Origin: Candidatus Nomurabacteria bacterium
Lineage (GTDB): Bacteria; Patescibacteriota; Minisyncoccia; Phycocordibacterales; UBA9973
Length of the DNA: 49,600 nucleotides
Assembly (NCBI GenBank): GCA_028286485.1
Contig: JAQBRM010000007.1
Span: 1 to 49,600 of the forward strand
Reading direction: 5' to 3'
How positions within the stretch are numbered: the first letter of the stretch is position 1; each line of letters begins with the position of its first letter. Of this stretch, positions 2,012-38,660 are shown piece by piece. Below the pieces are notes generated by a model. It was not told the DNA's origin. It worked only from the letters and a program-made list of their open reading frames with translations, and made no database searches. The position numbers were made by a program, and so were the translations under genes.

Positions 2012-2064
2012 TACTTCTCAGTGTAGAAGTCAATTATGAAGCCAAGATGAACACGGGGAAGAAG

Positions 2065-2751: not shown

Positions 2752-2760
2752 ATGAGGTAT

Positions 2761-3354: not shown

Positions 3355-3364
3355 GAAATTCTTC

Positions 3365-7337: not shown

Positions 7338-8309
7338 TTATTGGGTAGTGATGCTAATAACGGCTTTGTTGGCAGTGGCGGATGCACCGGCTTTCAGATC
7401 GGCATCGATGAATGACACAGTGCCGTTGCTTGGCGCGATGATGAAGTTGTTGCGATAGTTGGCCAGAGCGGATTGATAGACGCCTTGTGCGGCATCAACG
7501 GCGGCTTGTGAGGTATTGGCGCTGGATGACTGGTTGAGGTTGGCGGCAAATTGGTTGAGGACTTGATCACGCGTGCTGACTGCCAAGTCGTATGCATTCT
7601 TGTTGGTGACATAGCTTGCTGACTTGGTATTGGGAATACTGACCGTCCACTTTGTCGCTCCGGCAAATCCTGAAGTGAATGAAATGAAGAGCCCGCAACT
7701 TCCCAACGGCTGGGGCGTATTGAAGGTCACTACGCCATTGCCGCTTTCGAGGCCGCTATAGTTGAATGAAAATCCTGAGTTGGTGCCGGATGGATAGGGA
7801 TCGATTTCATATGAGCCTTCATTGGCACAATTATACGTACCGGTAATGATCGGCAAATGGCTGTCATCTTGTACGGATGGCACTGCTGCCAACCCGCTTG
7901 AAAGCAAAGTACGGTAAGCATTCTGCACCAACGTATCCTGCTGCTTTTTTGCATTGGCATACTGCACGTTCATGGAAGCGTACTGTGCTTGCGCCAGCTC
8001 CAATGCACCCTTGGCCTGTGTCAGTGATCCGGCAGCGGCTCCGGCATCCAATGAGGCCAGCACTTCCCCTTTGGTAACATGATCCCCTACTTTGACGGAA
8101 ACGCTGGCAATACGGCCGCCTTGCGGAAAGCCTAATGCCACGGAATTATTAGTAGTGTCGGTACTGATGACATTGGCATTGCTGGCAACATCGCTCGGCA
8201 CGTTGACGGTCGGCGCTTTGCCGACGGAATGATATAAGAAAACTCCCGCGATAATTGCCACGATAGCAACGATTGGGATGATGATTTTGGGTTTATGGAA
8301 TATGTTCAT
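7338..8309 (-). CDS. HlyD-like adaptor, hairpin/insert form (TM + lipoyl halves + coiled coil + beta-rich insert; lacks beta-barrel)
   Basis: 323 aa. It has an N-terminal TM segment, the lipoyl half VKVGDHVTKGEVLASLD and a coiled coil. An insert of about 100 aa (nt 7590-7910) is paralogous to the insert in the 13437-14999 protein. The protein ends just after the second lipoyl half (IIAPSNGTVSFID). Confidence 0.7.
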   Translation of the reverse strand: MNIFHKPKIIIPIVAIVAIIAGVFLYHSVGKAPTVNVPSDVASNANVISTDTTNNSVALGFPQGGRIASVSVKVGDHVTKGEVLASLDAGAAAGSLTQAKGALELAQAQYASMNVQYANAKKQQDTLVQNAYRTLLSSGLAAVPSVQDDSHLPIITGTYNCANEGSYEIDPYPSGTNSGFSFNYSGLESGNGVVTFNTPQPLGSCGLFISFTSGFAGATKWTVSIPNTKSASYVTNKNAYDLAVSTRDQVLNQFAANLNQSSSANTSQAAVDAAQGVYQSALANYRNNFIIAPSNGTVSFIDADLKAGASATANKAVISITTQ

Positions 8310-20341: not shown

Positions 20342-20965
20342 ATGAATGAGACACAGGAAATCATAAGGCAGTTGGGTGCCCTCTCGTATGGAGGAGTTTT
20401 TATTGTGTCACTGTTGGCCAATATAGTGATTCCGGTGCCGGAAGAAGTGGCATTGTTGGTTATTGGTTTTGCGGCACGAGCCGGCGGGTTCAGTCTTTTC
20501 TTGATTATTCCCATTGTCATGGCGGGATTGCTGACCAGTGACATTGCGCTGTATTATGCCTCCCGCAGAGGCAACCGGCTCGTGACCGGTTTTTATAACC
20601 GTATTTTTAAAAACCGTTTGACCGAGCGTCAGCAGTGGCTGGAGGATAATGTCAAAAAGGTTATTTTCTTCTCCCGTTTTTTAGTGCAACTGCGTTTCTT
20701 GGGACCGTTTTTCGCCGGTCAGACCAAAGTATCATGGAAAACCTTCATTACCTATGAGCTGGCAGCGCTTATTATCTACGTGCCGTTGGTAGTGGGTATC
20801 GGCTGGTTCTTCCATAGCGGTATTGAAAATATCATTAGCGGTATTAATGTGCTACGCAACGTATTCTTGATTTTCTTGGGATTACTCTTCCTCTTTTCCT
20901 TATACGAATCAATTCGTATAAATACGTTTGGTAAGCGTACTCGCAAGAAGAACAAGAAAAAATAG
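20342..20965 (+). CDS. DedA/VTT-domain membrane protein (second paralogue)
   Basis: 207 aa. The DedA-like core includes VPEEVALLVIGF, TSDIALYYASRRG and FFSRFLVQLRFLGPFFAG. Confidence 0.8.
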   Translation: MNETQEIIRQLGALSYGGVFIVSLLANIVIPVPEEVALLVIGFAARAGGFSLFLIIPIVMAGLLTSDIALYYASRRGNRLVTGFYNRIFKNRLTERQQWLEDNVKKVIFFSRFLVQLRFLGPFFAGQTKVSWKTFITYELAALIIYVPLVVGIGWFFHSGIENIISGINVLRNVFLIFLGLLFLFSLYESIRINTFGKRTRKKNKKK

Positions 20966-21561: not shown

Positions 21562-22353
21562 TTATTTCGAAATGTACTGCTGTAGGATCTCATCACAAGA
21601 AATTGCTTGTTGGGAGCCGGTAAAAGACTCGGCCACCGAAGGTTGAGCGGGAAAAAGCTCCCATGGCAGGACGCGACAGGCGAGAAAGGAGTGGCTGGCA
21701 GTAATAGCCCCCACAATACGAACAGCATTTCCTACCTGTAATAATACAGGGTCTGGAGCAGAGGAGAGCTTACTGATGTCCACAGTCCATACAAATCCAT
21801 TAAAAGCCCTTATTGTTAGCGTGGTGGGGCTTGTAGCGCTGACAACACCGGAAATACGGCCTTCCGTGGGGCTATTCCAGACGTATTCTTGTTGATTTTG
21901 AGTTGGGTGACGATAGTACGTTTCCACCCCATCATTCAGCGAATTGGCGGTCATGGCATAGAACAACATACCGATGATAATACTGCTCGCCACACTGATT
22001 AGCAGCAACTGTAGGGCCGTATGGCGATACCCCGTATTGGTTTTGCGCAGTAATGCGATAGTGATCAATGAGAAGAGTGCGAATGAAATAATCCATAATA
22101 ACGGGATAATAGCGATAAATACCAGCGGACCCCTATATTGGACATACTCTCTATTTTCCCAATGGGCATGCAAAATGCCGTACAATCCTCCAGCTATGGT
22201 ATAGGCTCCCAAGAGTGTGGTGATTACACCGGGAATCCACATCAATGTATTTCGCACCCTGAAATACCATTTCGGTCGCGGGGTGACTTTTTGCTGATCG
22301 ATAGCGGCAATGATTTTTTCGGTTGTATTAGATGTTGGTTCCATAGTCGGCAA
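21562..22353 (-). CDS. Polytopic membrane protein, putative anti-sigma factor
   Basis: 263 aa with several TM segments and a C-terminal soluble domain. It overlaps the 3' end of the ECF sigma gene by 26 nt. The function is inferred from position only. Confidence 0.45.
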   Translation of the reverse strand: MPTMEPTSNTTEKIIAAIDQQKVTPRPKWYFRVRNTLMWIPGVITTLLGAYTIAGGLYGILHAHWENREYVQYRGPLVFIAIIPLLWIISFALFSLITIALLRKTNTGYRHTALQLLLISVASSIIIGMLFYAMTANSLNDGVETYYRHPTQNQQEYVWNSPTEGRISGVVSATSPTTLTIRAFNGFVWTVDISKLSSAPDPVLLQVGNAVRIVGAITASHSFLACRVLPWELFPAQPSVAESFTGSQQAISCDEILQQYISK

Positions 22354-22906
22354 TCTTTTTTTGTAATTGTTTCTTGGCTCTATTGATACGCACCGCCACG
22401 GTACCGGCGGGGATTTTTAAAATATCAGCGATCTCTTCATATGATTTCTCCTCAAAAAAACGCAGGAGCAGGATTTCTTTGTATTTTTCATCAAGACCAT
22501 TGAGTGTGTTGATAATGTACTTTTTTTGTTCTTCATTACTGAAACGGGTGGTGAGGTCATCGTCGGACATGAGCTTGGTGACAATATCTTGGGCATCGTC
22601 ATCGAGCGACAGCGTGGCCCGCCGCTTCTCACGACGATACCAATCAATCATTTCGTTATGGGCGATGCGATAGATCCAAGAGGAAAATAATAGCGTCGTA
22701 TCATAGTCATTGAGGTTGCGATAGACCTTTATAAAAATATTTTGCAGCAAGTCCTCGATATCATCACTGGTGGCCAAGCTGCGCCGCCGGATGTATCGAG
22801 TCAATTTTGGCACGTATCGATCAACCAGCAATGCGAAATACTCAGAATCTTTCTTGCATTCAATGACAATCGCTTCATCGGAAAGCTGACCGGTATCTTG
22901 GAGCAT
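22328..22906 (-). CDS. ECF-type sigma-70 family RNA polymerase sigma factor
   Basis: 192 aa with region 2 (DIEDLLQNIFIKVYRNLNDYD...WIYRIAHNEMIDWYRR). Region 4 has an HTH (SYEEIADILKIPAGTVAVRINRAKKQL). Confidence 0.85.
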   Translation of the reverse strand: MLQDTGQLSDEAIVIECKKDSEYFALLVDRYVPKLTRYIRRRSLATSDDIEDLLQNIFIKVYRNLNDYDTTLLFSSWIYRIAHNEMIDWYRREKRRATLSLDDDAQDIVTKLMSDDDLTTRFSNEEQKKYIINTLNGLDEKYKEILLLRFFEEKSYEEIADILKIPAGTVAVRINRAKKQLQKKIADYGTNI

Positions 22907-22930: not shown

Positions 22931-23536
22931 CTATTTACTTTCATGTGAATTGTCGTGCGTTTTCACATAGTTATCATAGGCGGTTTGATAATGCATGACA
23001 GTCTCGTCTTTTGGAAAATAATGCGATGTTGTTTTGCTCCCCGGAATGTTTTCCGGATCTGATAAAACATCCAATACATGCCCATCTGCCAGCGTAGCCT
23101 TTCCTTCCGCTACACGCTGAATAAGCCATTCCCTATAATTTTTAAAATAAACTTGAATATTTCTGACATCATCAAGTTCCAAGGCAGTGTTTGGGTTTTC
23201 GTCAATAAATTGCTGAAGCATTTCCTGCGCCTTATTCCCTCTGTCTAATTCCTCACTGCCTCTTAACTTTTTTGCTTCAAGCCAATCCAAGTAGTGGTCC
23301 CACGCATGTTTCTTTTCAATTCTTATTTCTATATTGTTTTCCTTATGATGTACCGTTTCTGTTTTATCTCCCGGTTTATCCGGTGTTTCAGTATGATGCT
23401 CGGTGGCCAGTGCTCCTGTTGAAGCGGCCGCCAGCCCTACCGCCATAGCCGCTTTTCTCATCCAACTTGGTGTTTCAATGCTTGATGTCTCTTTTTCCTC
23501 GTTATTTTGCGGTATTGGTGGGTTTTCCATGCTCAT
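22931..23536 (-). CDS. Hypothetical membrane-anchored/secreted protein (201 aa), His-rich N-proximal segment
   Basis: Intact ORF with a hydrophobic segment (AAMAVGLAAASTGALA). It is divergent from the response regulator gene. I recognise no family. Confidence 0.5.
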   Translation of the reverse strand: MSMENPPIPQNNEEKETSSIETPSWMRKAAMAVGLAAASTGALATEHHTETPDKPGDKTETVHHKENNIEIRIEKKHAWDHYLDWLEAKKLRGSEELDRGNKAQEMLQQFIDENPNTALELDDVRNIQVYFKNYREWLIQRVAEGKATLADGHVLDVLSDPENIPGSKTTSHYFPKDETVMHYQTAYDNYVKTHDNSHESK

Positions 23537-23646
23537 ATACCCCAGTATATACCACTTCTCAAGAAATTCTAAAGCATTTCAGGGGGTCTTCCCCACTTTC
23601 AGCTCGTTTTTTAAAAATCCTTATCTTATAATGAATATATAACCAT

Positions 23647-24321
23647 ATGCGTATTTTATTGATTGAAGATGACACTGAGACTCAGGAATTCTTACTGAGA
23701 CGATTGGAAGAGAAAGGGTTTGCTGTTGATATTGCCAAGACCGGCAACCGGGGCATATTTCTTGCCAAAACAAATGAGTATGATGTCATTCTTTTGGACT
23801 ATGGGTTGCCGGAAAAGAACGGCTTCATGGTCTGTGAGGAAATACGGAGCAGTGGCAAGCATACCCCCATTATCATGATATCGGTCAGTGATGCCGTGGA
23901 TTACAAAATCAAAGGCCTGACTGCCGGCGCCGATGACTATGTGGCCAAGCCGTTTTACTTTGAGGAATTATTCGCGCGCATCCAAGCCATGCTGCGTCGA
24001 CCGGCTGTCCTGGAAAGCAGCTTTTACAGCATCGATGATTTGAAGGTGGACATCGATCGCCAAACGGTCATGCGAGCCAATGCGCCTATTTATCTGACAC
24101 GCAAAGAGTTCTCATTGTTGGAATATTTATTGAAACATACCGGCACGGTGGTAACACGCGGCGAACTCATGGAGCATATTTGGGATATGACACTCGACCC
24201 CTTTTCCAATACCATTGAAACCCATGTGCTTAATCTTCGTCGCAAGATCGAGCAACCGTCAAAAATCAAACTAATTCATAGCATCCCGGGTCGCGGTTAC
24301 AAAATCGATCTTATACGATAA
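23647..24321 (+). CDS. OmpR/PhoB-family response regulator
   Basis: 224 aa. The receiver domain includes ILLIEDD and DVILLDYGLP, and a winged-helix output domain follows (LTRKEFSLLEYLLKH...IHSIPGRGYKI). Confidence 0.95.
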   Translation: MRILLIEDDTETQEFLLRRLEEKGFAVDIAKTGNRGIFLAKTNEYDVILLDYGLPEKNGFMVCEEIRSSGKHTPIIMISVSDAVDYKIKGLTAGADDYVAKPFYFEELFARIQAMLRRPAVLESSFYSIDDLKVDIDRQTVMRANAPIYLTRKEFSLLEYLLKHTGTVVTRGELMEHIWDMTLDPFSNTIETHVLNLRRKIEQPSKIKLIHSIPGRGYKIDLIR

Positions 24322-24375
24322 TTTAGAAAAACTTCGGCTAAATTTTATCACTGATTTTCTATACTACAGGGGCTA

Positions 24376-24404
24376 TTGGTCGAATAGCACATACTAGCTA
24401 TAAT
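24376..24404 (+). promoter_or_regulatory. Promoter-like element inside the RR-HK gap
   Basis: TTGGTC (24376-24381) is followed by 17 nt and TATAAT (24399-24404), which ends 17 nt upstream of the mini-ORF ATG. The spacer overlaps the hairpin GCTATT-GGTCG-AATAGC. Confidence 0.3.
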
Positions 24405-24421
24405 TACTCCATTATTCCCCT

Positions 24422-24535
24422 ATGAATAAATTAGTAGAAACCATGCTTGCCACCCCCTCCGCCCGCAATGCCGAAACCCTGAAAACGGTAGCCCTGTCCC
24501 AGAGCACGTTCACCCCTTGGGAAGGTACCGAATAA
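24422..24535 (+). CDS. Hypothetical 37-aa ORF with one C-proximal Trp (candidate signalling-peptide precursor)
   Basis: My own translation is MNKLVETMLATPSARNAETLKTVALSQSTFTPWEGTE. It occupies the otherwise unexplained 234-nt gap between the RR stop and the HK ATG. I saw no SD sequence and have no homology evidence. Confidence 0.3.
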   Translation: MNKLVETMLATPSARNAETLKTVALSQSTFTPWEGTE

Positions 24536-24555
24536 ATCCCATACGGACCCATACA

Positions 24556-26049
24556 ATGAATACTCGTCATCGATTAAGCCATTCCTTCCTTTCTTTCAAG
24601 GCTTTATTCGACCGCGGTATTCATTTTATGTATAGGCGGTGCATCGCTCCGCGCTCCGACACGGAAGATGAGAAACGCCATGAATTCATCCTCAACACCA
24701 TTTTGTGCGGCATTATCCCACTGCTCATTATTCTGGATACTTTTATTGCCCATGCGGCTCTGGAGCAACGCAATGCATATCAAGGAGTGCCGTTTCCCAT
24801 CTTTAGTTTTATTGTCATTCTGTTTGTCTATCTCCTTATTCTGTCTCGCAATACCTACCATAGGCTGGCCAGCTTTATCCTGATCGGCTTGTATTTCATC
24901 AGTACGACGTATGGCGCGATTCATTGGGGTATTGAATTACCGCTCGTGGCTATCAGCTATGTCGTCATTATCGTGATTTCCAGTATTTTAATTTCCACGC
25001 GGTTTGGCTTCTTTGTCACCTCTACGATTACCCTTACGATCATTGCCATCTGTGAACTGCAACTGCATCAGATAGTACATCCATCGCTGCAATGGAAATA
25101 TGCGTCCATAAGCATTCATGACCCTATTCAGCTCTCGGTGATATTTTTCCTCATCACCATTATCTCTTGGCTGTCCAATAGGGAAATGGAACGGTCATTG
25201 ATCCGAGCACGGGCATCCGAACACTTGCTGGTGGAAGAAAGAAATCTCTTGGAGATAAAAGTCGAGGAACGCACCAAGGAATTGAAGGAGGTGCAGCATG
25301 ATAAAGTGGCACAACTCTATCGCGTGGCGGAATTTGGCCGCATCTCAGCCGGCGTATTCCATGATTTGATGAACTCTCTGCAAGTAGTGGTATCAAATAT
25401 CAGCCAAGTGGAGGCGGGACCCGAACATCTGCCGGAAGTAAGGTTGCAGCTGGCCAAGACCGTGGCGGCCAGCAAGCGCATGGGCCGCTACATTGATACC
25501 GTGCGCAAACAAATCAGAAATGATGATACTCTTGCCGCAGAATTCTCAGTGGAAAAAGAAATTACCGACGCGATGGATATGTTGCAATTTCACGCTCGTA
25601 AGGCAAACGTGTCACTGCATTTCATCAAGAAACATTCCCTGATCTTGCATGGCAATCCCTTGAAATTTTACCAAGCCATTCTTAACCTGTTAGCCAATGC
25701 CATTGATGCCTGCGATGACAATGATAAACAGGGACAGATAGACATTATCCTCCAGTCTCACATACAAAATACCCATGCTGTTGTTATCATTCGGGATAAC
25801 GGGTGCGGCATACCCGTTGATGTCCTAGACCATATCTTTGATCAATTTTTCACCACCAAGGGCGCTCATAAAGGCATCGGCTTAGGCCTGTCCCAAACCA
25901 AGGAAATTATCGAGAAGGAATTCAAGGGAACCATTACGGTGACCAGCGAAGAATATCGCGGCACGACATTTACCATTACCCTGCCCATCATTCATGACAC
26001 CATTCAATTATCAGCCGGCGCTGCAATACCTGCTCTCACAACAACATGA
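24556..26049 (+). CDS. Sensor histidine kinase with about six N-terminal TM helices and no large extracytoplasmic domain
   Basis: The H-box is ISAGVFHDLMNSL, the N-box LLANAIDA, G1 DNGCGI and G2 GIGLGL. I chose the ATG at 24556. The track TTG at 24517 would overlap the mini-ORF. Confidence 0.9.
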   Translation: MNTRHRLSHSFLSFKALFDRGIHFMYRRCIAPRSDTEDEKRHEFILNTILCGIIPLLIILDTFIAHAALEQRNAYQGVPFPIFSFIVILFVYLLILSRNTYHRLASFILIGLYFISTTYGAIHWGIELPLVAISYVVIIVISSILISTRFGFFVTSTITLTIIAICELQLHQIVHPSLQWKYASISIHDPIQLSVIFFLITIISWLSNREMERSLIRARASEHLLVEERNLLEIKVEERTKELKEVQHDKVAQLYRVAEFGRISAGVFHDLMNSLQVVVSNISQVEAGPEHLPEVRLQLAKTVAASKRMGRYIDTVRKQIRNDDTLAAEFSVEKEITDAMDMLQFHARKANVSLHFIKKHSLILHGNPLKFYQAILNLLANAIDACDDNDKQGQIDIILQSHIQNTHAVVIIRDNGCGIPVDVLDHIFDQFFTTKGAHKGIGLGLSQTKEIIEKEFKGTITVTSEEYRGTTFTITLPIIHDTIQLSAGAAIPALTTT

Positions 26050-27868
26050 GGACGGCTCTTTTGATACTACCTTTTATACGGGACTCATCGTCAATGCATT
26101 AGAACAATTTGACGATACTATCAGTCTTCTTATCAAAAAACGCGCCGTACGGTTTTTACTGCAAGAAAAAAGCAGGCAGTGGTCGTTTAATTACGATCGT
26201 CGAGATGCCGTGGACAACCGATATCCTGATGATTTGGATGATACGTTCGTGGCACTGAAAGCCATTAGCATATGCCGGCCTGCCATGCTGACAGGCGAAA
26301 CATGGCAAGCTATCACTGCATTGCTTATTGCCAATGAGGAAAAACCGGCCGGTCCATATCAGACATGGATCATGCCATTGGCTGCGCGATCGGTTGAATG
26401 GCAGGACATCGATATTGTCGTTAACAGCAACATTGCCTCTTTTTTATCGCGTTTCAATATCGTCTTGCCGAGCATGCAGGAATATTTTGATGGTTTTATA
26501 GAGGCGGGGAATTTTTCTTCACGCTATTACCACCATGAATGCATCATTGTGTATTTCTTATCAAAAGCCTATCGGGGAACACATGCCGGCTTGTTACGCG
26601 AAACGTTGTTGAAAAAACGCAATGAAAATAATTATTGGGATTCAGCGTTTATTGCCGCTTTGTCTGTCAGTGCCTTGTTGGCATTAGGACAGGCGTCTGC
26701 CAGCCTTACTCCTGCTATTCAATACATTATGGATGGTGAGAAAGACGGACAGTGGACAGCTGAATCTTTTTTTATTGAATCGAAAAGTAATTCCGGGGTA
26801 ACCTATAGCGTTTCAGCTGCTCATACTACCGCCTGTTGTATCGAGGCATTACGCGCATATGAAGCCGCTGTTCGTCTTTCTACCACTGCTTCTATTTCCA
26901 ATGGTAATGACACTGAAGAAACACTTTTTATTGAAAAAGTCATTAGCAGCTGCAAGGAAATATTCTGTAACAGTGGTTCATTACTAACACAGCACATTCA
27001 TGGGGCACTTGATGTACTGATGAAGAAAGACCCGCATGCCGAGGTGATATTATTACCGTATCATTTTTCAAAAAACATGATGTGTGGTGGAGCGGTGTCG
27101 ACTGAACAACTGGCCGTAGCGACCACCCTTGGTTGGATTGGGTATACATTCCTTGATAAGACCATGGATGGCGAAGATACTATCGGCCGATTACCGTTGG
27201 CTGCTAAATGTATTCGCGAGTCCTATAATATTTTTCAATTATTCAATAAAGACCATGGTTCTGTTGTCCAAAGAATTCTCGATGGTATAGAAAGTGCCGT
27301 GTTGTCTGAGTATGTGACCTGTATATTACAAAAAGATGGTGATGATTTTCTTATGCCTTTTACCCTGCCTGACTATGGTGACTATCAGTGCTTGGCGGAA
27401 AAATCATTAGGGTTTGCTTTGGCGCCTATTATTCTTTGCCTGCAGGCGCAGGAATATGATCAGGCGGTACTGATGGAAAGGTTTTTCATTCATTATCTCA
27501 TTGCCCGACAGCTGAATGATGATGCACATGACTGGCTGGAGGATTTGGAACATGGTTTCATCAACAGTGTCAGTGTCGATATCATTAAGGACTGGCACAC
27601 ACAATATGTTTCAAGGAAATTAAACATGCGCCATGATAAGAAAATACTGCAAACGATTTTTTGGGAGAAACATATCGATACTGTCAGTACTACTATTGTT
27701 TTTCATTGCCAGAAGGCCAGCGATGTATTGAAAAAAATCACCGTACTGGCCGATAACACATTCTTAGAAAATTTACTCCATCCCTTGCAGCATTCCGCCA
27801 CGGAAGCATTGACGGAGCGGGACAAGGTCAGGCAATTCATATATACTTTGCATACTAACGATGAGTAA
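25994..27868 (+). CDS. Fusion protein: N-terminal terminal-cyclase/prenyltransferase-like alpha/alpha-toroid domain + C-terminal isoprenoid-synthase-like (two Asp-rich motifs) domain
   Basis: 624 aa. QW-like repeats are ALQYLLSQQHEDGSF, AVRFLLQEKSRQWSF and AIQYIMDGEKDGQW. YPDDLDDTF (DLDDT encoded within 26228-26245) resembles the DxDDTA motif of class II cyclases. The C-terminal half has DKTMDGED (27155-27178) and QLNDDAHDWLEDLEHG (motif core 27515-27544), 121 residues apart. Coding status is confident; the functional call is tentative. Confidence 0.6.
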   Translation: MTPFNYQPALQYLLSQQHEDGSFDTTFYTGLIVNALEQFDDTISLLIKKRAVRFLLQEKSRQWSFNYDRRDAVDNRYPDDLDDTFVALKAISICRPAMLTGETWQAITALLIANEEKPAGPYQTWIMPLAARSVEWQDIDIVVNSNIASFLSRFNIVLPSMQEYFDGFIEAGNFSSRYYHHECIIVYFLSKAYRGTHAGLLRETLLKKRNENNYWDSAFIAALSVSALLALGQASASLTPAIQYIMDGEKDGQWTAESFFIESKSNSGVTYSVSAAHTTACCIEALRAYEAAVRLSTTASISNGNDTEETLFIEKVISSCKEIFCNSGSLLTQHIHGALDVLMKKDPHAEVILLPYHFSKNMMCGGAVSTEQLAVATTLGWIGYTFLDKTMDGEDTIGRLPLAAKCIRESYNIFQLFNKDHGSVVQRILDGIESAVLSEYVTCILQKDGDDFLMPFTLPDYGDYQCLAEKSLGFALAPIILCLQAQEYDQAVLMERFFIHYLIARQLNDDAHDWLEDLEHGFINSVSVDIIKDWHTQYVSRKLNMRHDKKILQTIFWEKHIDTVSTTIVFHCQKASDVLKKITVLADNTFLENLLHPLQHSATEALTERDKVRQFIYTLHTNDE

Positions 27869-28730
27869 GATCAGCAGCCTGACCAAAGAAACGTTTTCGC
27901 ACTGGTATGACCATAGCGCCCCTCGTATGGGGGCGGCATTGTCTTTCTATGCCCTCTTTTCCATTGCACCGTTATTCATTTTAGTGATCGGTGTCATTAG
28001 GACGATTTTTGATAGGGCGACCGTGCACATGGCTATTGATCATACCTTGCGCGCTACGGTCGGAAGCAATTTGGCGGCATCGATTCAAGGTCTCATTAAT
28101 GGCGCCTATCATGCCCCGGCCGGCGTAATGACCACCATCATAAGCGGGGTAATTCTGATCGTGGCCGCCATCAGCGTCTTTGCGGAACTGAATACAGACC
28201 TCGATGAGTTGTGGAAATTGCCATCACCTCGGCCCGTAGTCGAAAATACTTCCACCAAACAAGCGATCGTGCATTTTCTCAAAGATCGTTTATTGGCATT
28301 ATTCCTTATTTTACTATTCAGCCTGCTCTCCCTTTTCAGCGTGGCTTTTACGGTATTTATTTCTTTTTTTCACACGGCAACTATCTTGCTTCAAAATACT
28401 TTTTTATTGCAAGGCATTAATATAGCACTCACCCTCATTATCACCACCATTCTTTTCGCGCTGATTTATCGCATCCTGCCAGACACCAAGCTTACTTGGG
28501 GTGACATATTTCGCGGAGCGATCGTCACCTCCCTGCTTTTCTTGTTCGGCAAATACCTGATCGGCTGGTACATTGATGCCTTTGGCGGCACCTCCGCCTT
28601 CGGAACGGCCGGTTCCGTTGTCGGCCTGCTCTTATGGATATACTACTCCGCGCAAGTCTTCTTTATCGGCGCCTCATTTACCTTTGTCTATTCCAAACGA
28701 TACGGATTTCTATCGAGGATGATGAACTAG
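27861..28730 (+). CDS. YihY/BrkB-family polytopic membrane protein
   Basis: 289 aa. The N-terminus (FSHWYDHSAPRMGAALSFYALFSIAPL) and the C-terminal GSVVGLLLWIYYSAQVFFIGA are typical of YihY. It overlaps the upstream gene by 8 nt. Confidence 0.85.
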   Translation: MSKISSLTKETFSHWYDHSAPRMGAALSFYALFSIAPLFILVIGVIRTIFDRATVHMAIDHTLRATVGSNLAASIQGLINGAYHAPAGVMTTIISGVILIVAAISVFAELNTDLDELWKLPSPRPVVENTSTKQAIVHFLKDRLLALFLILLFSLLSLFSVAFTVFISFFHTATILLQNTFLLQGINIALTLIITTILFALIYRILPDTKLTWGDIFRGAIVTSLLFLFGKYLIGWYIDAFGGTSAFGTAGSVVGLLLWIYYSAQVFFIGASFTFVYSKRYGFLSRMMN

Positions 28731-30484
28731 CTGCTTCTTTTGGCATGCATCAATAGATCCACGGCGTGTTCAAATGATCCGGCGGCCGTTAATGAACTTC
28801 CATTGACGAAGAAAATTTCATCGGCATTTTGAATAGTGTTCAAACGGTGTGCAATGATGACTTTAGTGGTGGTGGGAGGAAGCGTTTCAATTACTTTCTC
28901 CAGCAATGCTTCGGTGACCGTATCAATGTTTGCGGTGGCTTCATCCAGAATAATCAAATCAGGTTTGCGTAAAACGGCGCGCATAAAGGCAATGAGTTGG
29001 CGCTGCCCCAGACTGATGCTTTCTCCACTCTGGGTGACCGGTGTAGCCAAGCCGGATTCAAACCGTTGCACTAAATCATACAGGCCGTTTTCATGCAGGG
29101 CTTTTTCCAAGTGCTCGACAGGGGTGCCGTCATAGGCGGTATTGCCATAAAAAATATTTTCTCCCACCGTGCCGCTGAATAGAAACGGTTCCTGTAAAAT
29201 AAATCCGATTTTCTGTACGCGTTCGGCATCGGGTACGGTGCGCATATCTTTTCCTTCCAACCACACGGTGCCATGAGAAGGATCGTACAGACGAGCCATC
29301 AACGAAGCAGTGGTGGTTTTGCCGCCGCCGGTCGGACCGACCAATGCGTATGTTTTGCCTGGCAGTAATGCCACGGTCACATCGTGCAGGACAGTTTTCT
29401 GACTGTCGCTATACATAAACCCCACATCTTGAAATGAAATAGTGGTGGCTAGATCCGCTCTCGCCGGAGCAGCGGCCAGTAAGGGCATATCATTAGGCAT
29501 GGCGACAATGCCGGCAATACGGTCCCAGCTAGCCATAGCGGTTTGAAAAGTGGCCCACAGTGAAGCCATTTGTCGTAACGGGTCATACAAGCGGCTGCAG
29601 TACGTGATATAACTGATCAAAAAACCCAGCGTGAAATTACCAATCAAAATAAGATGTATGCCGTATATCAGTACCAGCAATTGCGCGGCATTGGCGGCAA
29701 ACCCGTATAGTGCCACGAAAATGTTGTTGGCGATGCCGGCCCGCACGGAGGTTAGGAAATTTTTGTGATTGGCGGCATTGAATTTTTCCCGGAAGTAATC
29801 ACGACGGTTGAATGCCACAATGACTTTGAAGTTGCCGAGGCTCTCTTGGATCTCAGCGCTCATACCCCCCACTTCCTGCAAACTTTTTGCATTCTGCGTT
29901 TTAACCCATGAGCCGATCAGTTGTGTCACCACCAACACGACCGCCAATGGGATCAAGGCAATAAGGCCAAGTCGCGGATTGATACTGAGGATAAATATAG
30001 CCGCGCCGATCATGACAAAGATATTGCCGATGAATTGCATCAAGGACTGGGAGAAAAATTGGTTCAAGTTGTCTGTATCGGTGTTGATGCGGGAAATAAG
30101 ATCACCGGCCTTGTTTTGGTTGAAGAAGGCAATAGGCAACTCCTGCAACTTTTCAAATATGGTGTTGCGCAAGGTAAAGAGCAAGCGCTGGCTGACGCCG
30201 CCCATGACTTTGGTTTGAACGTAGCTGGCAATGAACGCACCAATGTAGACCAATAACACCAATCCCGCGTACAAGGGCAAACCGGCATAGTGTTTCGTAA
30301 TAATGTACGTATTGATAGCGCGACCGATCAAGAGCGGGGTCAGCAGGGTCAGTCCGGCATTGGTAATAATGGCGGTAAAAGTAACGGCTAGTTGCACGGT
30401 GTCATTTTTCAGCAACGGCAAAAGCTTGCGCAGTGCCGCGAAGACTGATGATCTTTCTTGATGTGTATTCAATGAATAATTCAT
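28727..30484 (-). CDS. ABC exporter, fused TMD-NBD (half-transporter, partner B)
   Basis: 585 aa with six TM segments followed by an NBD. The NBD has Walker A (GPTGGGKTT), signature (LSLGQRQ) and Walker B (LILDEAT). Confidence 0.9.
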   Translation of the reverse strand: MNYSLNTHQERSSVFAALRKLLPLLKNDTVQLAVTFTAIITNAGLTLLTPLLIGRAINTYIITKHYAGLPLYAGLVLLVYIGAFIASYVQTKVMGGVSQRLLFTLRNTIFEKLQELPIAFFNQNKAGDLISRINTDTDNLNQFFSQSLMQFIGNIFVMIGAAIFILSINPRLGLIALIPLAVVLVVTQLIGSWVKTQNAKSLQEVGGMSAEIQESLGNFKVIVAFNRRDYFREKFNAANHKNFLTSVRAGIANNIFVALYGFAANAAQLLVLIYGIHLILIGNFTLGFLISYITYCSRLYDPLRQMASLWATFQTAMASWDRIAGIVAMPNDMPLLAAAPARADLATTISFQDVGFMYSDSQKTVLHDVTVALLPGKTYALVGPTGGGKTTTASLMARLYDPSHGTVWLEGKDMRTVPDAERVQKIGFILQEPFLFSGTVGENIFYGNTAYDGTPVEHLEKALHENGLYDLVQRFESGLATPVTQSGESISLGQRQLIAFMRAVLRKPDLIILDEATANIDTVTEALLEKVIETLPPTTTKVIIAHRLNTIQNADEIFFVNGSSLTAAGSFEHAVDLLMHAKRSS

Positions 30485-32190
30485 GCCGGTTCCACGCTCT
30501 GTTGTGATTGATAAATTTGCACATACTCGGGAGAAGATTCCATCAGTTGACGATGGGTGCCTTGCGCCAATAACTCCCCTTCCATGACCACGATGATATT
30601 GTCATAGTCGGTAATGGACGCTATTTTTTGCGTGATGGAAATAAGCGTCAGATCGGGATAGTTGGCACGCACATTGGCCAGGATATTTTGCTCGGTCTGC
30701 GGATCAACGCGGGCGGTAAAATCATCCAACAGTAAAATTTTCGGATTAAGCGCCAGTGCCCGAGCCAGCATGATGCGCTGCTTCTGACCGCCGGATAAGC
30801 TGGTGCCGCGCTCGGAAATAATGGTGTTCAAGCCGTCCGGCAACGCCGCAATGAAATCATCCAGCTCGGCCGTGTCGATCGCCCGCTCCACATCCGCGTC
30901 GCTGACCGTCGTACTGAAGGCGATATTTTCTCGAACGGTGGTATTGAAAATAATGCTGTCTTGAAACACGAAACCGATCTGGCTATGAATGGTGCGCTGA
31001 TCATACGCATCCAACGGAATACCGTCATACAAGACCGTACCGTTAGTGGCTGACAATAACCCAGTCATGATATACAGGAGTTGCGTTTTACCGGCGGCGG
31101 TCGGGCCGATAATGGCATTCTTGGTGCGAGGCCTGATGGTAAATGACACATCTTTCAGGGCATGCTTTTCTCCGAACACCATGCCGATATCCTGCACGGT
31201 GATTGCGCCGGTCAGGCGCGTAGTGACAGTACCGGTCTTTTCCGGCAACGGAGCATGTAAAACCAGTGACAGGCGCTGGTAAGAAGCGGTGGCGCGGGCG
31301 ATGACATTGCTCATGAAGCCGATGATGATGATAGGAAAGATTAGAATGGCAATGTAGCTATTGAAGGCGGTAAAATTGCCGATGCTCATATGCCCGACAA
31401 TCACGGATCTGCCGCCGAACAGCAATACGGCCACGATGGCCACGTTGGCTACAAAGCCGATAAACGGAATGAGGAAGGCGAACATGCCGAGAATTTTGAA
31501 GCCGTTGTTTTTGGCATCGGTGTTGACGGTCAGGAATTTCTGATACTCGTACTGTTGGGAATTAAGCACGCGAATGAGCGCCGCACCCAAGATACTCTCA
31601 TTGATGACCTTGTTCAATCGATCGATAATGGATTGCGTTTTCAAAAAAAGCGGTCGTACCTTGCTCAAGATAAAAAAGAAGGTACCGCCAATGACGGGAA
31701 TGATGGCCAAGACGCCGAGTGCCAGCTGCCAATTCAATCCGATCAACAGTATGGCCACGCCGACAATGATGAAGATGGAGGAAATAATCGATACGACAGC
31801 TTGCGAGACGAAAACCTTGATGGCATCGGCATCGGACGTGATATTGGTCAGCAAGACGGAAGGGTTGGCGGACTGGATGTAGGCGAAATTTTGCAATGAA
31901 ATTTTTCCCATCAAATTTTCACGCAGATCGCGCGCGACCCGCTCGGACACGTAGGTCTGCATGACGTTCTGCCCGTAGGTGGTGATGAGGATACCGATGG
32001 CCGCCAAAACAAAAAAGGTTGCCATGTGAGCGACCACCAAGGTGCCGGCGGTGAATTGGTCGAGGGTGGAAGCAATAAGCTTCGGCACAACCAGTGTAAT
32101 GCCGTTACTGAACAACGCTAAAAAGGTCAGGGCGACAAGCAGCCCTCGGTATGGGCGAAGGAGTGAAAAAATGGAAGTATTATTGTTCAT
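30481..32190 (-). CDS. ABC exporter, fused TMD-NBD (half-transporter, partner A)
   Basis: It shows Walker A (GPTAAGKTQ), signature (LSGGQKQR) and Walker B (LLLDDFT). It overlaps partner B by 4 nt. I chose the ATG at 32190 (MNNNTSIF). The track TTG at 32223 would overlap murG by 44 nt. Confidence 0.9.
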   Translation of the reverse strand: MNNNTSIFSLLRPYRGLLVALTFLALFSNGITLVVPKLIASTLDQFTAGTLVVAHMATFFVLAAIGILITTYGQNVMQTYVSERVARDLRENLMGKISLQNFAYIQSANPSVLLTNITSDADAIKVFVSQAVVSIISSIFIIVGVAILLIGLNWQLALGVLAIIPVIGGTFFFILSKVRPLFLKTQSIIDRLNKVINESILGAALIRVLNSQQYEYQKFLTVNTDAKNNGFKILGMFAFLIPFIGFVANVAIVAVLLFGGRSVIVGHMSIGNFTAFNSYIAILIFPIIIIGFMSNVIARATASYQRLSLVLHAPLPEKTGTVTTRLTGAITVQDIGMVFGEKHALKDVSFTIRPRTKNAIIGPTAAGKTQLLYIMTGLLSATNGTVLYDGIPLDAYDQRTIHSQIGFVFQDSIIFNTTVRENIAFSTTVSDADVERAIDTAELDDFIAALPDGLNTIISERGTSLSGGQKQRIMLARALALNPKILLLDDFTARVDPQTEQNILANVRANYPDLTLISITQKIASITDYDNIIVVMEGELLAQGTHRQLMESSPEYVQIYQSQQSVEPA

Positions 32191-33313
32191 GTTCAAAGGC
32201 GATGCTGACAGCTTCCGCGGCAATCAAGCGGGCGGCTTCGGGTTTGTAAAATGCCTTGGCGCGAGCAGCCATGGCATCATAATGATCTTTGTGGCCCAAG
32301 ATCAGGTCAATTTCATTTTTCAATACTGAGGGCGTGAGGTTTACTTCCTCAATGACGGCACAAGCGCCGGTGCGGGCATAGTGATAGGCATTCTTACGCT
32401 GGTGATCGCCGTGAAAGACAGCGGCACTGCCGGGAATGATGATAGAGGGTTTGCCCCACGCGGCGATTTCAAAAATCTGCGAGCCGGCCCGGGAAATGAT
32501 GATATCGGCGGCGCCACCGAACATTTTTGTCTGCAAATCGTTGAAGTACGGAAAGAGTTTATACCGGTTTCGTTTAGTGTCATCGCTGAGCAGTACTTCC
32601 ACATCGGTTTTTGTTTCTTCAAAATTCTTCCTGCCGGTCTGATGGATGATCTGATAGTGCTGCACCAACCCGGGCAGCAATGACGTGAGCGCATCATTGA
32701 TCTTCTTGGCACCCGATGAACCGCCGATTACGCCGATGGTGGGAATACCGGGTGTCAGTTCAAAAAATTCCTTTGCTCCTTCCGTGGCAGCATAGGAAAT
32801 ACTTCTCCGTACCGGTTGTCCGGTCAGCGCGATTTTCTTCTGATCAAAATATTCCGCCGCTTCGGGATAGGATAATGCCACTTTGCGCGCGAATCGTCCC
32901 GACCATTTATTGACGCGTCCCGGCACGGTGTCAGACTCATGCACGATGACGGGAACACGCAAGATACGAGCTGCCACCAAGACCGGAAAAGCCGCATAGC
33001 CGCCCTTGCTGATGATGACATCGGGGTAGAGATTGAAGAGTTTGAATAGGGCACCAACGGTACCAACCGCGGTTTTGATAGCATCGACAAAATTCTGCAA
33101 AGAAAAGTAGACGCGCATCTTGCCGGCCGTGATGGGAATGTAGGTAATGAACTGTTCGGCCAATGCTTCTTGGTCATACGGCCCGTCGGACATGTAGTAC
33201 AGCTTGAAGTTGGCGATCTTCTCCTCGTCAGCAATACGGTTCAATTCTTCCGCCACCGCGATCAATGGGTAAAAATGCCCTCCCGTTCCCCCGCCTATCA
33301 GTAAAATCTTCAT
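32180..33313 (-). CDS. murG: UDP-GlcNAc:lipid I N-acetylglucosaminyltransferase MurG
   Basis: 377 aa with the N-terminal ILLIGGGTGGHFYP motif. It sits next to ftsW and mraY. Confidence 0.9.
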   Translation of the reverse strand: MKILLIGGGTGGHFYPLIAVAEELNRIADEEKIANFKLYYMSDGPYDQEALAEQFITYIPITAGKMRVYFSLQNFVDAIKTAVGTVGALFKLFNLYPDVIISKGGYAAFPVLVAARILRVPVIVHESDTVPGRVNKWSGRFARKVALSYPEAAEYFDQKKIALTGQPVRRSISYAATEGAKEFFELTPGIPTIGVIGGSSGAKKINDALTSLLPGLVQHYQIIHQTGRKNFEETKTDVEVLLSDDTKRNRYKLFPYFNDLQTKMFGGAADIIISRAGSQIFEIAAWGKPSIIIPGSAAVFHGDHQRKNAYHYARTGACAVIEEVNLTPSVLKNEIDLILGHKDHYDAMAARAKAFYKPEAARLIAAEAVSIAFEHEQ

Positions 33314-38201: not shown

Positions 38202-38660
38202 CTAATGCAGGAAATTCAACTTTGGATTTCTGAGATAGTTATTTTCCACTTTTTCCAATCGTGTATCGATGTTTTCCATCCTATATTCCACACGCTCTAG
38301 CCGATTCTCAATTTTATCAAATCGATCATCCATGCTGTCAAAACGCCGACCAACTGCTTCAAATTCTTTAGCAGTAATAATAGCCAGTTCTTCAACCTTT
38401 TCATCTATTTTTTGTAATAAGTTTGTTTCTACAGCTTCTATTTTAGCTAATAATTTTGTTTCAACGCCGTCTATTTTAGCAGTCAGCTCAGTTCTCACAC
38501 TATGAACTTCTGCTCCCAGTCCATCAATTTTAGTTAATAATATTGTTTCAACACCATCTATTTTTTGATCCAACTGTTTGTTTTGCGCTCCAAGCCCAAT
38601 GATCATTTCAGCCAGATCTTCATTCGTGACGTCTTTTTTGGTTGGTTTGGTACTACTCAT
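38202..38660 (-). CDS. Hypothetical coiled-coil protein with 11-residue repeats
   Basis: 152 aa with repeats KIDGVETILLT / KIDGVETKLLA / KIEAVETNLLQ / KIDEKVEELAI. I see no TM segment and recognise no family. Confidence 0.55.
   Translation of the reverse strand: MSSTKPTKKDVTNEDLAEMIIGLGAQNKQLDQKIDGVETILLTKIDGLGAEVHSVRTELTAKIDGVETKLLAKIEAVETNLLQKIDEKVEELAIITAKEFEAVGRRFDSMDDRFDKIENRLERVEYRMENIDTRLEKVENNYLRNPKLNFLH
38391..38564 (-). repeat. Intragenic tandem ~33-nt (11-aa) repeats
   Basis: The DNA repeats GTTTCAAC(G/A)CC(G/A)TCTATTTT-type units. They encode the KIDGVET-x-LL-x units at protein residues 33-90. Confidence 0.6.

Follow-up and report, generated by a model that had tools for sequence, protein, structure and literature searches.

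A conserved Trp-containing peptide gene between a response regulator and a histidine kinase in Patescibacteria: a putative ComX-like precursor linked to a predicted terpene cyclase/prenyltransferase

In the comQXPA cluster of Bacillus, a short precursor with one Trp near its C-terminus, the residue modified in ComX, is encoded immediately 5' of a polytopic kinase, together with a trans-IPPS-superfamily enzyme and a response regulator (RR), and no dedicated exporter is encoded. In the PalP-PalX-PalQ system of Paenibacillus alvei (PMC10853753), a kinase and a Trp-ending precursor are accompanied by a Trp prenyltransferase, remote and trans-IDS-like, that sequence annotation had missed. A ComQ-like system outside Firmicutes, StheQ/StheX, is present in Sphaerobacter thermophilus (bioRxiv 10.64898/2026.08.29.745113); the Trp of StheX is second from the C-terminus, and StheQ combines an IPPS fold with a FARM and an N-D pseudo-SARM. 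In the ChrPC and NctPC maturases, as described in PMC13290415, a Trp-directed prenyltransferase (trans-IDS-like in ChrPC) is joined to a class II cyclase that acts on the peptide-bound prenyl group. The locus reported here resembles comQXPA and PalPXQ in these components and StheQ/StheX in a Trp near the C-terminus and in the fold and second Asp-rich motif of the enzyme, and shares with ChrPC/NctPC the fused domain pair, a likeness drawn from the account of Hubrich et al. (2024, Chem 10:3224) given in PMC13290415. It belongs to the phylum Patescibacteria, in contrast to the Firmicutes of comQXPA.

Patescibacteria account for a large part of bacterial diversity; their genomes are tiny, and they are mostly host-attached. 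To our knowledge, almost nothing is known of how they sense one another or their hosts, and our literature search returned nothing relevant on ComX or quorum sensing in the candidate phyla radiation, or on prenyltransferase RiPPs in Patescibacteria. The window analyzed here, 49,600 nucleotides of a Candidatus Nomurabacteria contig, contains a four-gene module in the order RR, peptide, six-TM histidine kinase (HK) and predicted fused terpene cyclase/prenyltransferase (RR-X-HK-Q, as opposed to Q-X-P-A in comQXPA), with the following features:

23647 to 24321, + strand: OmpR-family response regulator (receiver domain and winged-helix Trans_reg_C), first gene of the module
24360 to 24365, + strand: TATACT, a -10-like box that lies 6 nt before the hairpin, conserved in the seven-relative alignment
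24372 to 24388, + strand: stem-loop GCTATT-GGTCG-AATAGC, with GTCG at the 3' side of the loop, conserved
24399 to 24404, + strand: TATAAT proposed earlier as a promoter box (with TTGGTC), present, not alignable in relatives
24422 to 24535, + strand: gene of the putative 37-aa precursor peptide, with a conserved leader-like N-terminal part, a variable middle, and P32-W33 followed by four residues
24556 to 26049, + strand: sensor histidine kinase with six predicted TM helices (hydropathy) and a C-terminal HATPase_c domain (Pfam)
25994 to 27868, + strand: 624-aa 'hypothetical' protein, predicted from model and motifs to be a fused enzyme with an N-terminal class II terpene cyclase and a C-terminal trans-IPPS-fold domain

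A previous sequence-only reading of this DNA had pointed to a 234-nt gap between the RR and HK genes (24322–24555), and this is borne out by the RR end at 24321 and the HK ATG at 24556. The hairpin that it placed at 24372–24388 was found there with the same sequence, and the 37-codon ORF at 24422–24535 is present, encodes MNKLVETMLATPSARNAETLKTVALSQSTFTPWEGTE and stops 20 nt before the kinase ATG. The ORF had been read as the precursor of a ComX-like, Trp-centered pheromone, with a fortuitous ORF in a purely cis-regulatory leader as the alternative, and preservation of frame and Trp in orthologous gaps had been proposed as the deciding comparison.

This comparison showed that frame and Trp are kept far beyond the close relatives of the window. 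Of 18 related Patescibacteria loci, 16 encode this peptide directly upstream of the kinase; reading frame, length (33–40 aa) and Trp are preserved in all 16, whose HKs are merely 34–59% identical. Stop codons are abundant in the other two frames. The variable alignment columns are distributed over the three codon positions as 24/18/30 of 35, and pN/pS is 0.45, with pS saturated at 0.70; because this substitution pattern is that of a coding sequence, it indicates coding selection on the peptide gene. A profile search of 1.84 billion proteins retrieved 359 representative clusters (E ≤ 1e-3), nearly all of 33–40 aa and matched end to end. The few family members with a name in the source are called 'hypothetical protein', and the genes are sometimes mis-called. 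A chance ORF would agree with the lack of a Shine-Dalgarno (SD) sequence before the peptide ATG and with the choice of another start by the source gene caller (P0045, 30 aa, starting at M8). However, SD sequences are nearly absent from this genome (4 of 39 genes), residues 1–8 are conserved in all relatives, and conservation of frame, length, N-terminal motif and Trp extends over the 16 loci and 359 clusters, in addition to the coding substitution pattern, leaving a negligible probability that the ORF is fortuitous and the gap a cis-regulatory leader only. The ORF at 24422–24535 is thus, on the comparative sequence evidence, a real gene under coding selection, and the earlier alternative is rejected for the ORF, although the gap also holds a conserved hairpin.

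The N-terminal 16 residues are the best-conserved part of the peptide and follow the motif M.K[LVI][IL]..[IV]LT[DN]K.AR, with M1, L9 and R15 invariant. The middle is variable, followed by the invariant Trp, usually as PW: exactly one W is present in 151 of 156 distinct family members, Pro precedes it in 83%, and it lies 0–7 residues from the C-terminus, mostly 1–4. A conserved N-terminus, a variable middle and tail and one invariant residue are, as judged from the alignment, the leader-plus-core layout of a precursor peptide. The peptide shares with precursors of the ComX/PalX type its short length, a Trp near the C-terminus and an adjacent gene for a trans-IPPS-superfamily enzyme. It differs from ComX in that it matched no Pfam or NCBIfam family, ComX (PF05952) included (hmmscan against Pfam of the window peptide and four relatives, E ≤ 10). 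It differs from PalX, in which the leader is a long NHLP one and the Trp strictly C-terminal, in having a leader of a new family, about 15–25 residues long, and 1–6 residues after the Trp, and from StheX in size (69 aa in StheX). In the window's clade, F.PWEG around the Trp is conserved. The Trp-flanking residues in this clade are not diversified into pherotypes, which would be as compatible with a conserved binding partner as with a signal.

The kinase contains HATPase_c (Pfam E 7e-26) preceded by six TM segments by hydropathy (residues 49–203) with short loops and no extracytoplasmic domain, and its N-terminus is conserved from residue 1 in L001–L006. Six TM helices with short loops are expected of a sensor for a membrane-embedded peptide or lipid. 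The likeness to ComP is one of analogy only, and no ComP-specific match was present among the best 25 of 76 NCBIfam families. The RR (Response_reg, E 4e-26; Trans_reg_C, E 3e-23) is of the OmpR type and not of the NarL/ComA type, which places the pair outside the ComP/ComA class. It lies 5' of peptide and HK in L001–L005, L007–L013, L016–L017 and L026–L028, and about 3 kb upstream of them in L006; no RR match was found in the stretch covered for L015.

The 624-aa protein provides the clue to the function of the peptide, and was overlooked in the sequence-only reading. Homologs are encoded downstream of the HK in L001–L013 and L015, and a single gene lies between peptide and enzyme in all 14 loci for which enough sequence is available. 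In 14 loci peptide and enzyme occur together; L014, with an RR-HK gap of just 68 nt, and L018 have neither. When three distant homologs of the enzyme were taken as the starting point, each contig contained an RR, a small ORF, an HK and the enzyme, and the small ORF was in each case a member of the peptide family. Co-occurrence of peptide and enzyme is thus strict in the loci examined.

No Pfam or NCBIfam match was obtained for the window 624-aa protein, and these scans detected no sequence homology to ComQ (IPR033965) or polyprenyl_synt; the prenyltransferase domain is recognized by fold only. Its only phmmer match among PDB sequences, LegK7, was spurious, and a family profile was needed. A second, word-indexed search with this profile found no members beyond the first 32. 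The AlphaFold (AF2) model (pLDDT 92) has two domains. By Foldseek, the model matched class II cyclases (drimenol synthase, E 6.5e-7; SHC), hexaprenyl-, octaprenyl- and GGPP synthases (target-normalized TM 0.65–0.74), and the indole prenyltransferase Ord1.

Both the alpha/alpha-toroid fold and the DxDD(T) acid motif of class II terpene cyclases are found in the N-terminal domain. The motif, D80-L81-D82-D83-T84 (DLDDT), is invariant in the family alignment. In profile comparison with the cyclase domain of drimenol synthase (E 7e-16), PdDLDDT is aligned to PDDLDTT, and the chain of the drimenol synthase D333N mutant reads PDDLNTT at the position aligned to DLDDT. Two homologs, P0009 and P0025, score above the Pfam threshold for SQHop_cyclase_C. 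The domain is therefore drimenol-synthase/AstC-like, in contrast to the cyclase domain of NctPC, which is described as MstE-like (PMC13290415); the family profile matched MstE with an E-value of 1.7. As far as the descriptions of ChrPC/NctPC allow comparison, the present enzyme further differs from them in that its cyclase is N-terminal to the prenyltransferase, and in being embedded in a two-component system and in Patescibacteria. ComQ, PalQ and StheQ are the other points of reference: an extra class II cyclase domain distinguishes the enzyme from comQXPA, PalQ and StheQ have no such domain, and no kinase/regulator pair is reported around StheQ/StheX. In the L024 lineage most of the cyclase domain is missing from the enzyme, which indicates that cyclization is not universal.

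The C-terminal domain of the predicted model has the all-alpha trans-IPPS fold, and its invariant residues are D388, D392, Q506, D509, D510, H512, D513, W514 and D517. The first Asp-rich motif reads LDKTMDGED, a D-x3-D (D388 and D392) instead of DDxxD, in a position that fits the FARM; in the L024 homolog it reads YDDFWDED. Q506 directly precedes the second Asp-rich motif, N-D509-D510-x-x-D513 (consensus ARQLNDDAHDW), and Q506, D509, D510, H512, D513 and W514 are invariant in 31 sequences. A Gln together with the first SARM Asp is the Trp-recognition feature of trans-IDS-like Trp prenyltransferases and of Ord1 (PMC13290415), and the enzyme contains the conserved Gln upstream of an (N)D SARM or pseudo-SARM (PMC13290415; bioRxiv 10.64898/2026.08.29.745113). 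One homolog gave sub-threshold Pfam matches to polyprenyl_synt (E 0.017) and Terpene_syn_C_2, and hhalign of the family against one bona fide GGPP synthase found nothing. Its model and motifs identify the 624-aa protein as a class II terpene cyclase joined in one chain to a predicted prenyltransferase of the trans-IPPS fold.

An improbable alternative is that the peptide is a small unmodified protein of the cytoplasm that binds the kinase or RR and modulates it, as connectors or anti-kinases such as Sda and MgrB do, and that a free cyclic terpenoid is the separate product of the enzyme. Terpene synthases in which class I and class II domains are fused and which act on free substrates are well known, the window peptide is hydrophilic (mean hydropathy -0.3) with no signal peptide, and the peptide gene lies 1–123 nt from the kinase start in all loci (13–26 nt in the window's clade). 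However, a single invariant, Pro-preceded Trp near the C-terminus behind a leader-like N-terminus is the layout of a precursor, and peptide and enzyme are present or absent together. In addition, the Gln before the SARM goes with Trp-directed prenyltransferases and not with chain-elongating synthases (PMC13290415).

We therefore favor the ComX-like reading: because it is accompanied by the fused terpene cyclase/prenyltransferase, the peptide is most likely a lipid-modified signaling precursor. In full, the ORF at 24422–24535 would encode a ribosomal precursor that is lipidated after translation, the resulting peptide being made by the module and sensed by its kinase as an autoinducer, and we consider this explanation probable. 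The conservation of ORF and Trp and the linked enzyme gene both support the pheromone-precursor part of the earlier proposal. The support is by analogy, not by homology, because it consists of enzyme folds, motifs and context, with no homology to ComX, ComP or ComA; the module is an analog, not a homolog, of comQXPA.

We infer modification, export and sensing of the peptide as follows. The TATACT box and the GTCG-loop hairpin would form the module's own regulatory region in the gap. The N-terminal part of the peptide (M.KhI..hLTDK.AR) would be the leader recognized by the enzyme, the C-terminal trans-IPPS-like domain of which, to judge from fold, motifs and linkage, may prenylate W33 in the manner of ComQ, PalQ, StheQ and the ChrPC P domain. 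The N-terminal cyclase (DLDDT) would then turn the attached prenyl chain into drimane-like rings, as in ChrPC/NctPC. Removal of the leader and release of the peptide would give a lipophilic C-terminal fragment that may be sensed in the membrane by the polytopic kinase, and signaling from kinase to RR would complete an autoinducing loop like comQXPA or PalPXQ, the steps from sensing onward being the least certain. The specific product, a pheromone of Patescibacteria (Paceibacteria/Parcubacteria lineages) in which a Trp carries a cyclized, drimane-like terpene made by the fused enzyme and sensed by the six-TM kinase, is put forward tentatively, with rather less than even expectation.

A polyprenyl/GGPP-synthase gene is located inside or next to the module in L013 and L026, and is a possible source of the prenyl donor. 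No homolog of the L013 synthase was found by tblastn in the window or the other loci among L001–L022, and none of the 20 window ORFs scanned against Pfam is a prenyl-diphosphate synthase. A neighboring donor synthase is therefore an occasional and not a constant part of the module. The module has no conserved exporter, leader protease or immunity gene alongside it, the two ABC exporters and BrkB being confined to close relatives.

In the strongest rival, the peptide is modified by the same enzyme and its product, instead of being a signal dedicated to cell density, is an effector, such as a membrane-active antimicrobial, a host-attachment factor or an episymbiont lipopeptide targeting the host membrane, with the two-component system only controlling or auto-inducing production, as NisRK does for nisin. 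The linkage and enzyme evidence applies equally to this explanation, the window's clade has kept the F.PWEG core, and the middle segment is strongly hydrophobic in many members of the family, P0055 (...SALMALIVTVMGVGLPW) among them. Terpene-cyclized ribosomal peptides were reportedly characterized by Hubrich and colleagues in 2024 as natural products, and for polytheonamide-type peptides the lipid moiety is said to have been proposed to direct membrane binding. However, neither immunity nor dedicated export genes are conserved, and a peptide gene kept between RR and HK over wide divergence is the typical arrangement of an autoinducer. We regard the effector role as unlikely, albeit the most serious of the alternatives. 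Effector and signal roles can coexist.

If the pheromone reading with its terpene-modified Trp is correct, the module would be the first cell–cell or cell–host signaling system described in these ultra-small episymbionts and would give terpene-cyclized ribosomal peptides their first signaling role. It would also extend ComX-type Trp lipidation to a new phylum and to enzymes with a terpene cyclase, which is relevant to biocatalytic lipidation of peptides. In the same reading, the hairpin with its GTCG loop would be a cis-regulatory RNA element not described before. The analysis defines a family of small proteins that is new and comprises at least 359 sequence clusters, and suggests a function for a family of 600-aa 'hypothetical' proteins. 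A regulator, a Trp peptide, a membrane kinase and a putative lipidating enzyme constitute a concrete hypothesis that is testable in E. coli, and a long RR-HK spacer can signal a hidden autoinducer gene.

The gap contains further conserved elements 5' of the peptide gene. GTCG is found 31–56 nt 5' of the peptide ATG in 17 of 17 loci, with stems of at least 6 bp in 13 of the 17, compared with 11% of 1542 other GTCG sites. The hairpin is unique in the window, and an Rfam scan of positions 23000–26000 (E ≤ 1) gave no match, the hairpin included. Its stems covary, with sequences differing between lineages, and T.G pairs occur on the + strand only, which favors an RNA hairpin. A palindromic operator was considered and rejected, as variable arms around a constant loop are the opposite of what half-site recognition predicts. 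The GTCG-loop hairpin is thus a conserved cis element of the gap, with a putative regulatory function.

The hairpin has also to be weighed in relation to a regulatory leader, in which ribosome stalling at PWEG would control translation or transcription of the kinase 20 nt downstream, as in TnaC or SecM. A conserved hairpin in the same gap, a conserved C-terminus in which Pro-Trp comes within a few codons of the stop, and a distance of 13–26 nt to the kinase ATG in the window's clade would suit such a leader. However, the hairpin lies 5' of the ORF and not between ORF and kinase, the residues after the Trp and the distance to the kinase start (1–123 nt) vary widely, and conservation is best in the N-terminal 16 residues, which are dispensable in arrest peptides. 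The C-terminal-only conservation and fixed geometry to the start codon that mark arrest or attenuation leaders were not found, and the strict co-occurrence with a Trp-prenyltransferase-like enzyme would be left unexplained, making stalling very improbable.

The promoter proposed by the sequence-only reading, TTGGTC (24376–24381) and TATAAT (24399–24404) with a 17-nt spacer, exists in the sequence; its TATAAT is not conserved in relatives. No more than 8 of 15 loci have a TAnnnT between hairpin and ATG, and its distance varies. A consensus promoter and terminator scan listed neither TTGGTC-17-TATAAT nor any terminator in the gap, the former because the first hexamer matches at 3 of 6 positions only. 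The GTCG loop as the -35 of a TATAAT promoter was likewise rejected, as the A/T-rich hexamers about 15 nt downstream in several loci are not consistently TAnnnT. The predicted transcription start near 24411 therefore loses its box, and TATACT at 24360–24365 is the conserved one instead (alignment of seven close relatives). In 13 of the 15 loci compared, a TAnnnT box begins 6–17 nt before the hairpin, suggesting TATACT as a candidate promoter of the peptide-HK-enzyme transcript. Many start codons of this genome, in which SD sequences are nearly absent, also have TATACT as the common box immediately before them. In L006, the box, hairpin and peptide have stayed with the HK despite the distant RR.

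The RR-HK gap of 234 nt described in the sequence-only reading was borne out (RR end at 24321, HK ATG at 24556), and the hairpin and 37-codon ORF were present there exactly as claimed. The locus comprises a module of four genes, encoding a response regulator (RR), a peptide, a histidine kinase (HK) and an enzyme:

23647-24321, + strand: OmpR-type RR, first gene of the module
24322-24555: RR-HK spacer, 234 nt
24360-24365, + strand: TATAC(T) box, a conserved block of the seven-spacer alignment
24372-24388, + strand: hairpin GCTATT-GGTCG-AATAGC
24376-24404, + strand: TTGGTC-17-TATAAT, the promoter proposed in the sequence-only reading
24422-24535, + strand: peptide ORF, 37 codons
24556, + strand: ATG of the HK, whose N-terminus is kept from residue 1 in relatives
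25994-27868, + strand: enzyme, 624 aa, conserved directly after the HK in the related Patescibacteria loci L001-L013 and L015

The closest relatives of the HK belong to MAGs labelled Candidatus Nomurabacteria or Paceibacterota. When the 37-aa product was compared by tblastn with the loci that the HK had retrieved, the peptide lay at the same position in the six closest species (HK 55-59% identical, peptide 43-60% identical), where it is 37-38 aa long and stops 13-26 nt before the HK ATG. In distant loci (HK 34-48% identical), the spacers of L007-L013 and L015-L017 proved on reading to contain this small ORF too. A loose peptide pattern (M-x7,8-L-x5-R-x10-22-W-x0-6-stop), searched in all six frames, had a single occurrence in each peptide-bearing locus and in the entire 49.6-kb window, and was not found in L014 or L018-L022. 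In the seven close sequences, 24, 18 and 30 of 35 columns varied at the three codon positions, mean pN was 0.31, with pS saturated at 0.70, and the other two frames were interrupted by stops. A profile of 16 members, run against 1.84 billion representative proteins, matched 359 clusters at E<=1e-3, nearly all of 33-40 aa and end-to-end. The comparison proposed with the original observation, whether orthologous gaps keep the ORF and its Trp, thus returned the same small ORF with Trp in related loci. We conclude from these comparisons that the ORF is a real gene; a fortuitous ORF, the alternative raised at the time, is contradicted by the conservation and the coding substitution pattern, and its probability is negligible.

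No Shine-Dalgarno motif precedes the peptide ATG, which is no objection to the gene, since only 4 of the 39 window genes have a Shine-Dalgarno-like motif. In many of these genes, TATACT or TATAAT lies 6-10 nt upstream of the ATG (e.g. 4231-4752, − strand; 20342-20965, + strand; 38202-38660, − strand), and the genome's gene starts suggest that leaderless or very short-leader mRNAs are widespread. The source's gene call for the peptide (database protein P0045, window 24443-24535) has 30 aa and takes the internal Met8 as its start; since residues 1-8 are conserved, M1 is favoured as the true start. Several database homologues bear spurious N-terminal extensions, and annotation of this small gene family is systematically wrong or missing.

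Inspection of 156 distinct family members gave an N-terminal consensus of M-[KN]-K-[LVI]-[IL]-[EK]-K-[IV]-L-T-[DN]-K-x-A-R-[NS], followed by a variable middle. Exactly one Trp (W33 in the window) is present in 151 of the 156, directly preceded by Pro in 83% and usually followed by 1-4 variable residues. By sequence, the peptide has the layout of a RiPP precursor, with a conserved leader, a variable core and one invariant residue. A PWCC ending defines a subfamily (P0043, P0049, P0051, P0066, P0094 and the peptides of L012 and L017).

The 624-aa protein had no match in Pfam or NCBIfam. Peptide and enzyme are jointly present in 14 loci and jointly absent from L018 and from L014, where an orthologous RR-HK pair has a spacer of only 68 nt. 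The sequences of L016 and L017 stop short of the expected enzyme position. Starting from three distant enzyme homologues, each contig contained RR, small ORF, HK and enzyme, the small ORF being a peptide family member in all three, and three look-ups from peptides gave the same gene order wherever the contig was long enough. Alongside this linkage, an identity of the ORF as an arrest or leader peptide is very improbable.

In 31 enzyme homologues, D80-L-D-D-T84 is invariant in the N-terminal half, and D388, D392, Q506, D509, D510, H512, D513, W514 and D517 in the C-terminal half. The AlphaFold model (pLDDT 92) was resolved by Foldseek into two domains. The N-terminal domain matched the class II terpene cyclases drimenol synthase (E 6.5e-7), drimenyl-diphosphate synthase and squalene-hopene cyclase. 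The family profile also matched the drimenol synthase cyclase domain at the sequence level (E 7e-16), with PdDLDDT aligned to PDDLDTT; the D333N mutant chain of drimenol synthase has PDDLNTT at this position. Two homologues passed the SQHop_cyclase_C Pfam threshold. The C-terminal domain matched hexaprenyl, octaprenyl and GGPP trans-isoprenyl-diphosphate synthases (target-normalised TM 0.65-0.74) and the indole prenyltransferase Ord1, and one homologue had sub-threshold polyprenyl_synt and Terpene_syn_C_2 matches in this half.

Trp is the target of the trans-IDS-like peptide prenyltransferases ComQ, PalQ and the ChrPC P domain, and of Ord1; in all of them a conserved Gln directly precedes the second Asp-rich motif (SARM), and this Gln and the motif's first Asp are positioned near the indole NH (PMC13290415, section 2.4). 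The invariant Q506-L-N-D509-D510 fits this description. Of the conserved ComQ features, a DDxxD first Asp-rich motif (FARM) and an N-D pseudo-SARM (bioRxiv 10.64898/2026.08.29.745113), the enzyme has the pseudo-SARM, and at the place of the FARM a non-canonical D-x3-D variant. That the peptide is an unmodified small regulator and the enzyme makes a free terpenoid is an unlikely alternative to Trp modification. The L024 enzyme (2309-3676, + strand, 455 aa) retains the prenyltransferase domain, including QLNDDAHDW and, at the FARM position, DDFWDED. Most of the cyclase domain is missing from it, and some module members therefore probably make linear prenyl-Trp peptides.

The HK has six predicted TM helices (residues 49-203) with short connecting loops, no extracytoplasmic domain and a standard HATPase_c domain. 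This predicted architecture is as expected for membrane sensing of a lipophilic ligand, as in AgrC, ComD or ComP.

Most likely, the peptide is a precursor whose W33 is prenylated and then cyclised by the enzyme, giving a product that acts through the HK and RR. Fold, catalytic motifs and strict gene linkage suggest that the C-terminal domain would prenylate W33, and that the N-terminal class II cyclase would cyclise the attached prenyl chain. Signalling of the modified product via the co-encoded HK and RR is proposed from the gene arrangement and the comQXPA and PalPXQ analogy only; it is possible, though distinctly less probable, that the modified peptide is an effector merely regulated by the two-component system. 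The hypothesis of a modified signalling peptide, whose chemical and signalling steps we infer, is specific, unexpected for Patescibacteria and directly testable.

The original ComX-like interpretation is therefore supported, corrected on promoter and homology: the module resembles comQXPA in its proposed working, yet is no member of it. A Pfam scan of the window peptide and four relatives gave no ComX match, the RR is of a different family, neither HK nor RR is homologous to ComP or ComA in a specific sense, and the enzyme is related to ComQ by fold only and has an additional cyclase domain. A class of fused prenyltransferase-cyclases, ChrPC and NctPC, was reportedly described by Hubrich et al. 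in 2024. This class is the closest enzymatic precedent; by the summary in PMC13290415, the NctPC cyclase domain resembles MstE, whereas that of the module is drimenol-synthase/AstC-like and N-terminal. For a kinase-linked cluster, PalP-PalX-PalQ (PMC10853753) comes closest, and for ComQ-like chemistry outside Firmicutes the precedent is StheQ/StheX (bioRxiv 10.64898/2026.08.29.745113). Full-text literature searches returned nothing on such a system in Patescibacteria. The peptide family, the enzyme architecture and context, and the occurrence in this phylum are new.

The TTGGTC-17-TATAAT promoter, though present, was not listed by a consensus scan, since TTGGTC shares just 3 of its 6 bases with TTGACA, and its TATAAT block is unalignable in relatives. 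Alignment of seven close spacers revealed four conserved blocks: one just past the RR stop, TTTTATC, the TATAC(T) box and the hairpin. In 17/17 loci, GTCG (often GGTCGA) occupies the 3' side of the hairpin loop, 31-56 nt ahead of the peptide ATG. Hairpin sites occur in the window, L001-L017 and L026. Stems of at least 6 bp were found in 13/17 loci; of the 1542 GTCG sites elsewhere in this DNA, 11% have them. Stem sequences vary (GCTATT, AGAGCTAT, GAGTCAT, TTTCCG, TGAAATTAAT, GGGCCTTT, GGGTCTTT, GGAAGAGT, ATGATGA and others) and covary, and several hold T.G pairs workable only on the + strand, which favours a stem-loop formed by the sense RNA. The differing stems and strand-specific pairs disfavour a palindromic operator. 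Rfam had no match in the RR-HK region, including the GTCG-loop hairpin, possibly a novel cis-regulatory RNA belonging to the module. In the more distant L024, L027 and L028, the RR-peptide spacers are short and have no such hairpin, and the element is thus clade-specific.

In 13 of the 15 loci examined, the start of a TAnnnT box falls 6-17 nt 5' of the hairpin, and in L011, L015 and L026 the box abuts the stem; between hairpin and ATG, TAnnnT occurs in 8 of the 15, at scattered distances. In L006, the RR is separated from the peptide-HK unit by an inserted gene for a 945-aa repetitive Gly/Thr/Ser-rich surface-type protein (906-3743, − strand). Box, hairpin, peptide and HK remain together despite this opposite-strand insertion, so the unit very probably has its own promoter. 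We tentatively predict a TSS at the hairpin base, near 24371-24374.

At 21562-22906 (− strand), the gene of an ECF-type sigma factor (192 aa, Sigma70_r2 + r4_2) overlaps a 263-aa ORF; the two sit some 750 nt upstream of the RR, on the strand opposite to it. The 263-aa ORF has a sub-threshold Tetraspanin-like Pfam match only (E 0.0066) and is possibly a membrane anti-sigma factor. The pair had no tblastn match (E<=1e-8) in L001-L022, and so apparently does not travel with the module. After the module, 27861-32223 encodes a BrkB-family membrane protein and two ABC exporters (ABC_membrane + ABC_tran, − strand). BrkB is also present in L001-L005, and an exporter homologue, lying where the sequence ends, in L001, L003 and L004; neither was found in the more distant loci examined, so these genes, confined to close relatives, were rejected as a conserved peptide exporter.

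The called enzyme start overlaps the HK gene end by 56 nt in the window (25994-26049), against 8-17 nt in L026 and L027, and the true start may therefore lie further downstream. A polyprenyl/GGPP-synthase gene lies between RR and peptide in L013 (2696-3739, + strand) and right after the enzyme in L026 (6908-7927, + strand), a plausible source of prenyl donor there; none was found in the window by tblastn with the L013 enzyme or by Pfam on 20 window ORFs. In L028, an ICMT-family (isoprenylcysteine carboxyl methyltransferase) gene (7637-8041, + strand) lies ~700 nt past the enzyme; set beside the PWCC-ending peptides, this may be a coincidence or a pointer to further modification.
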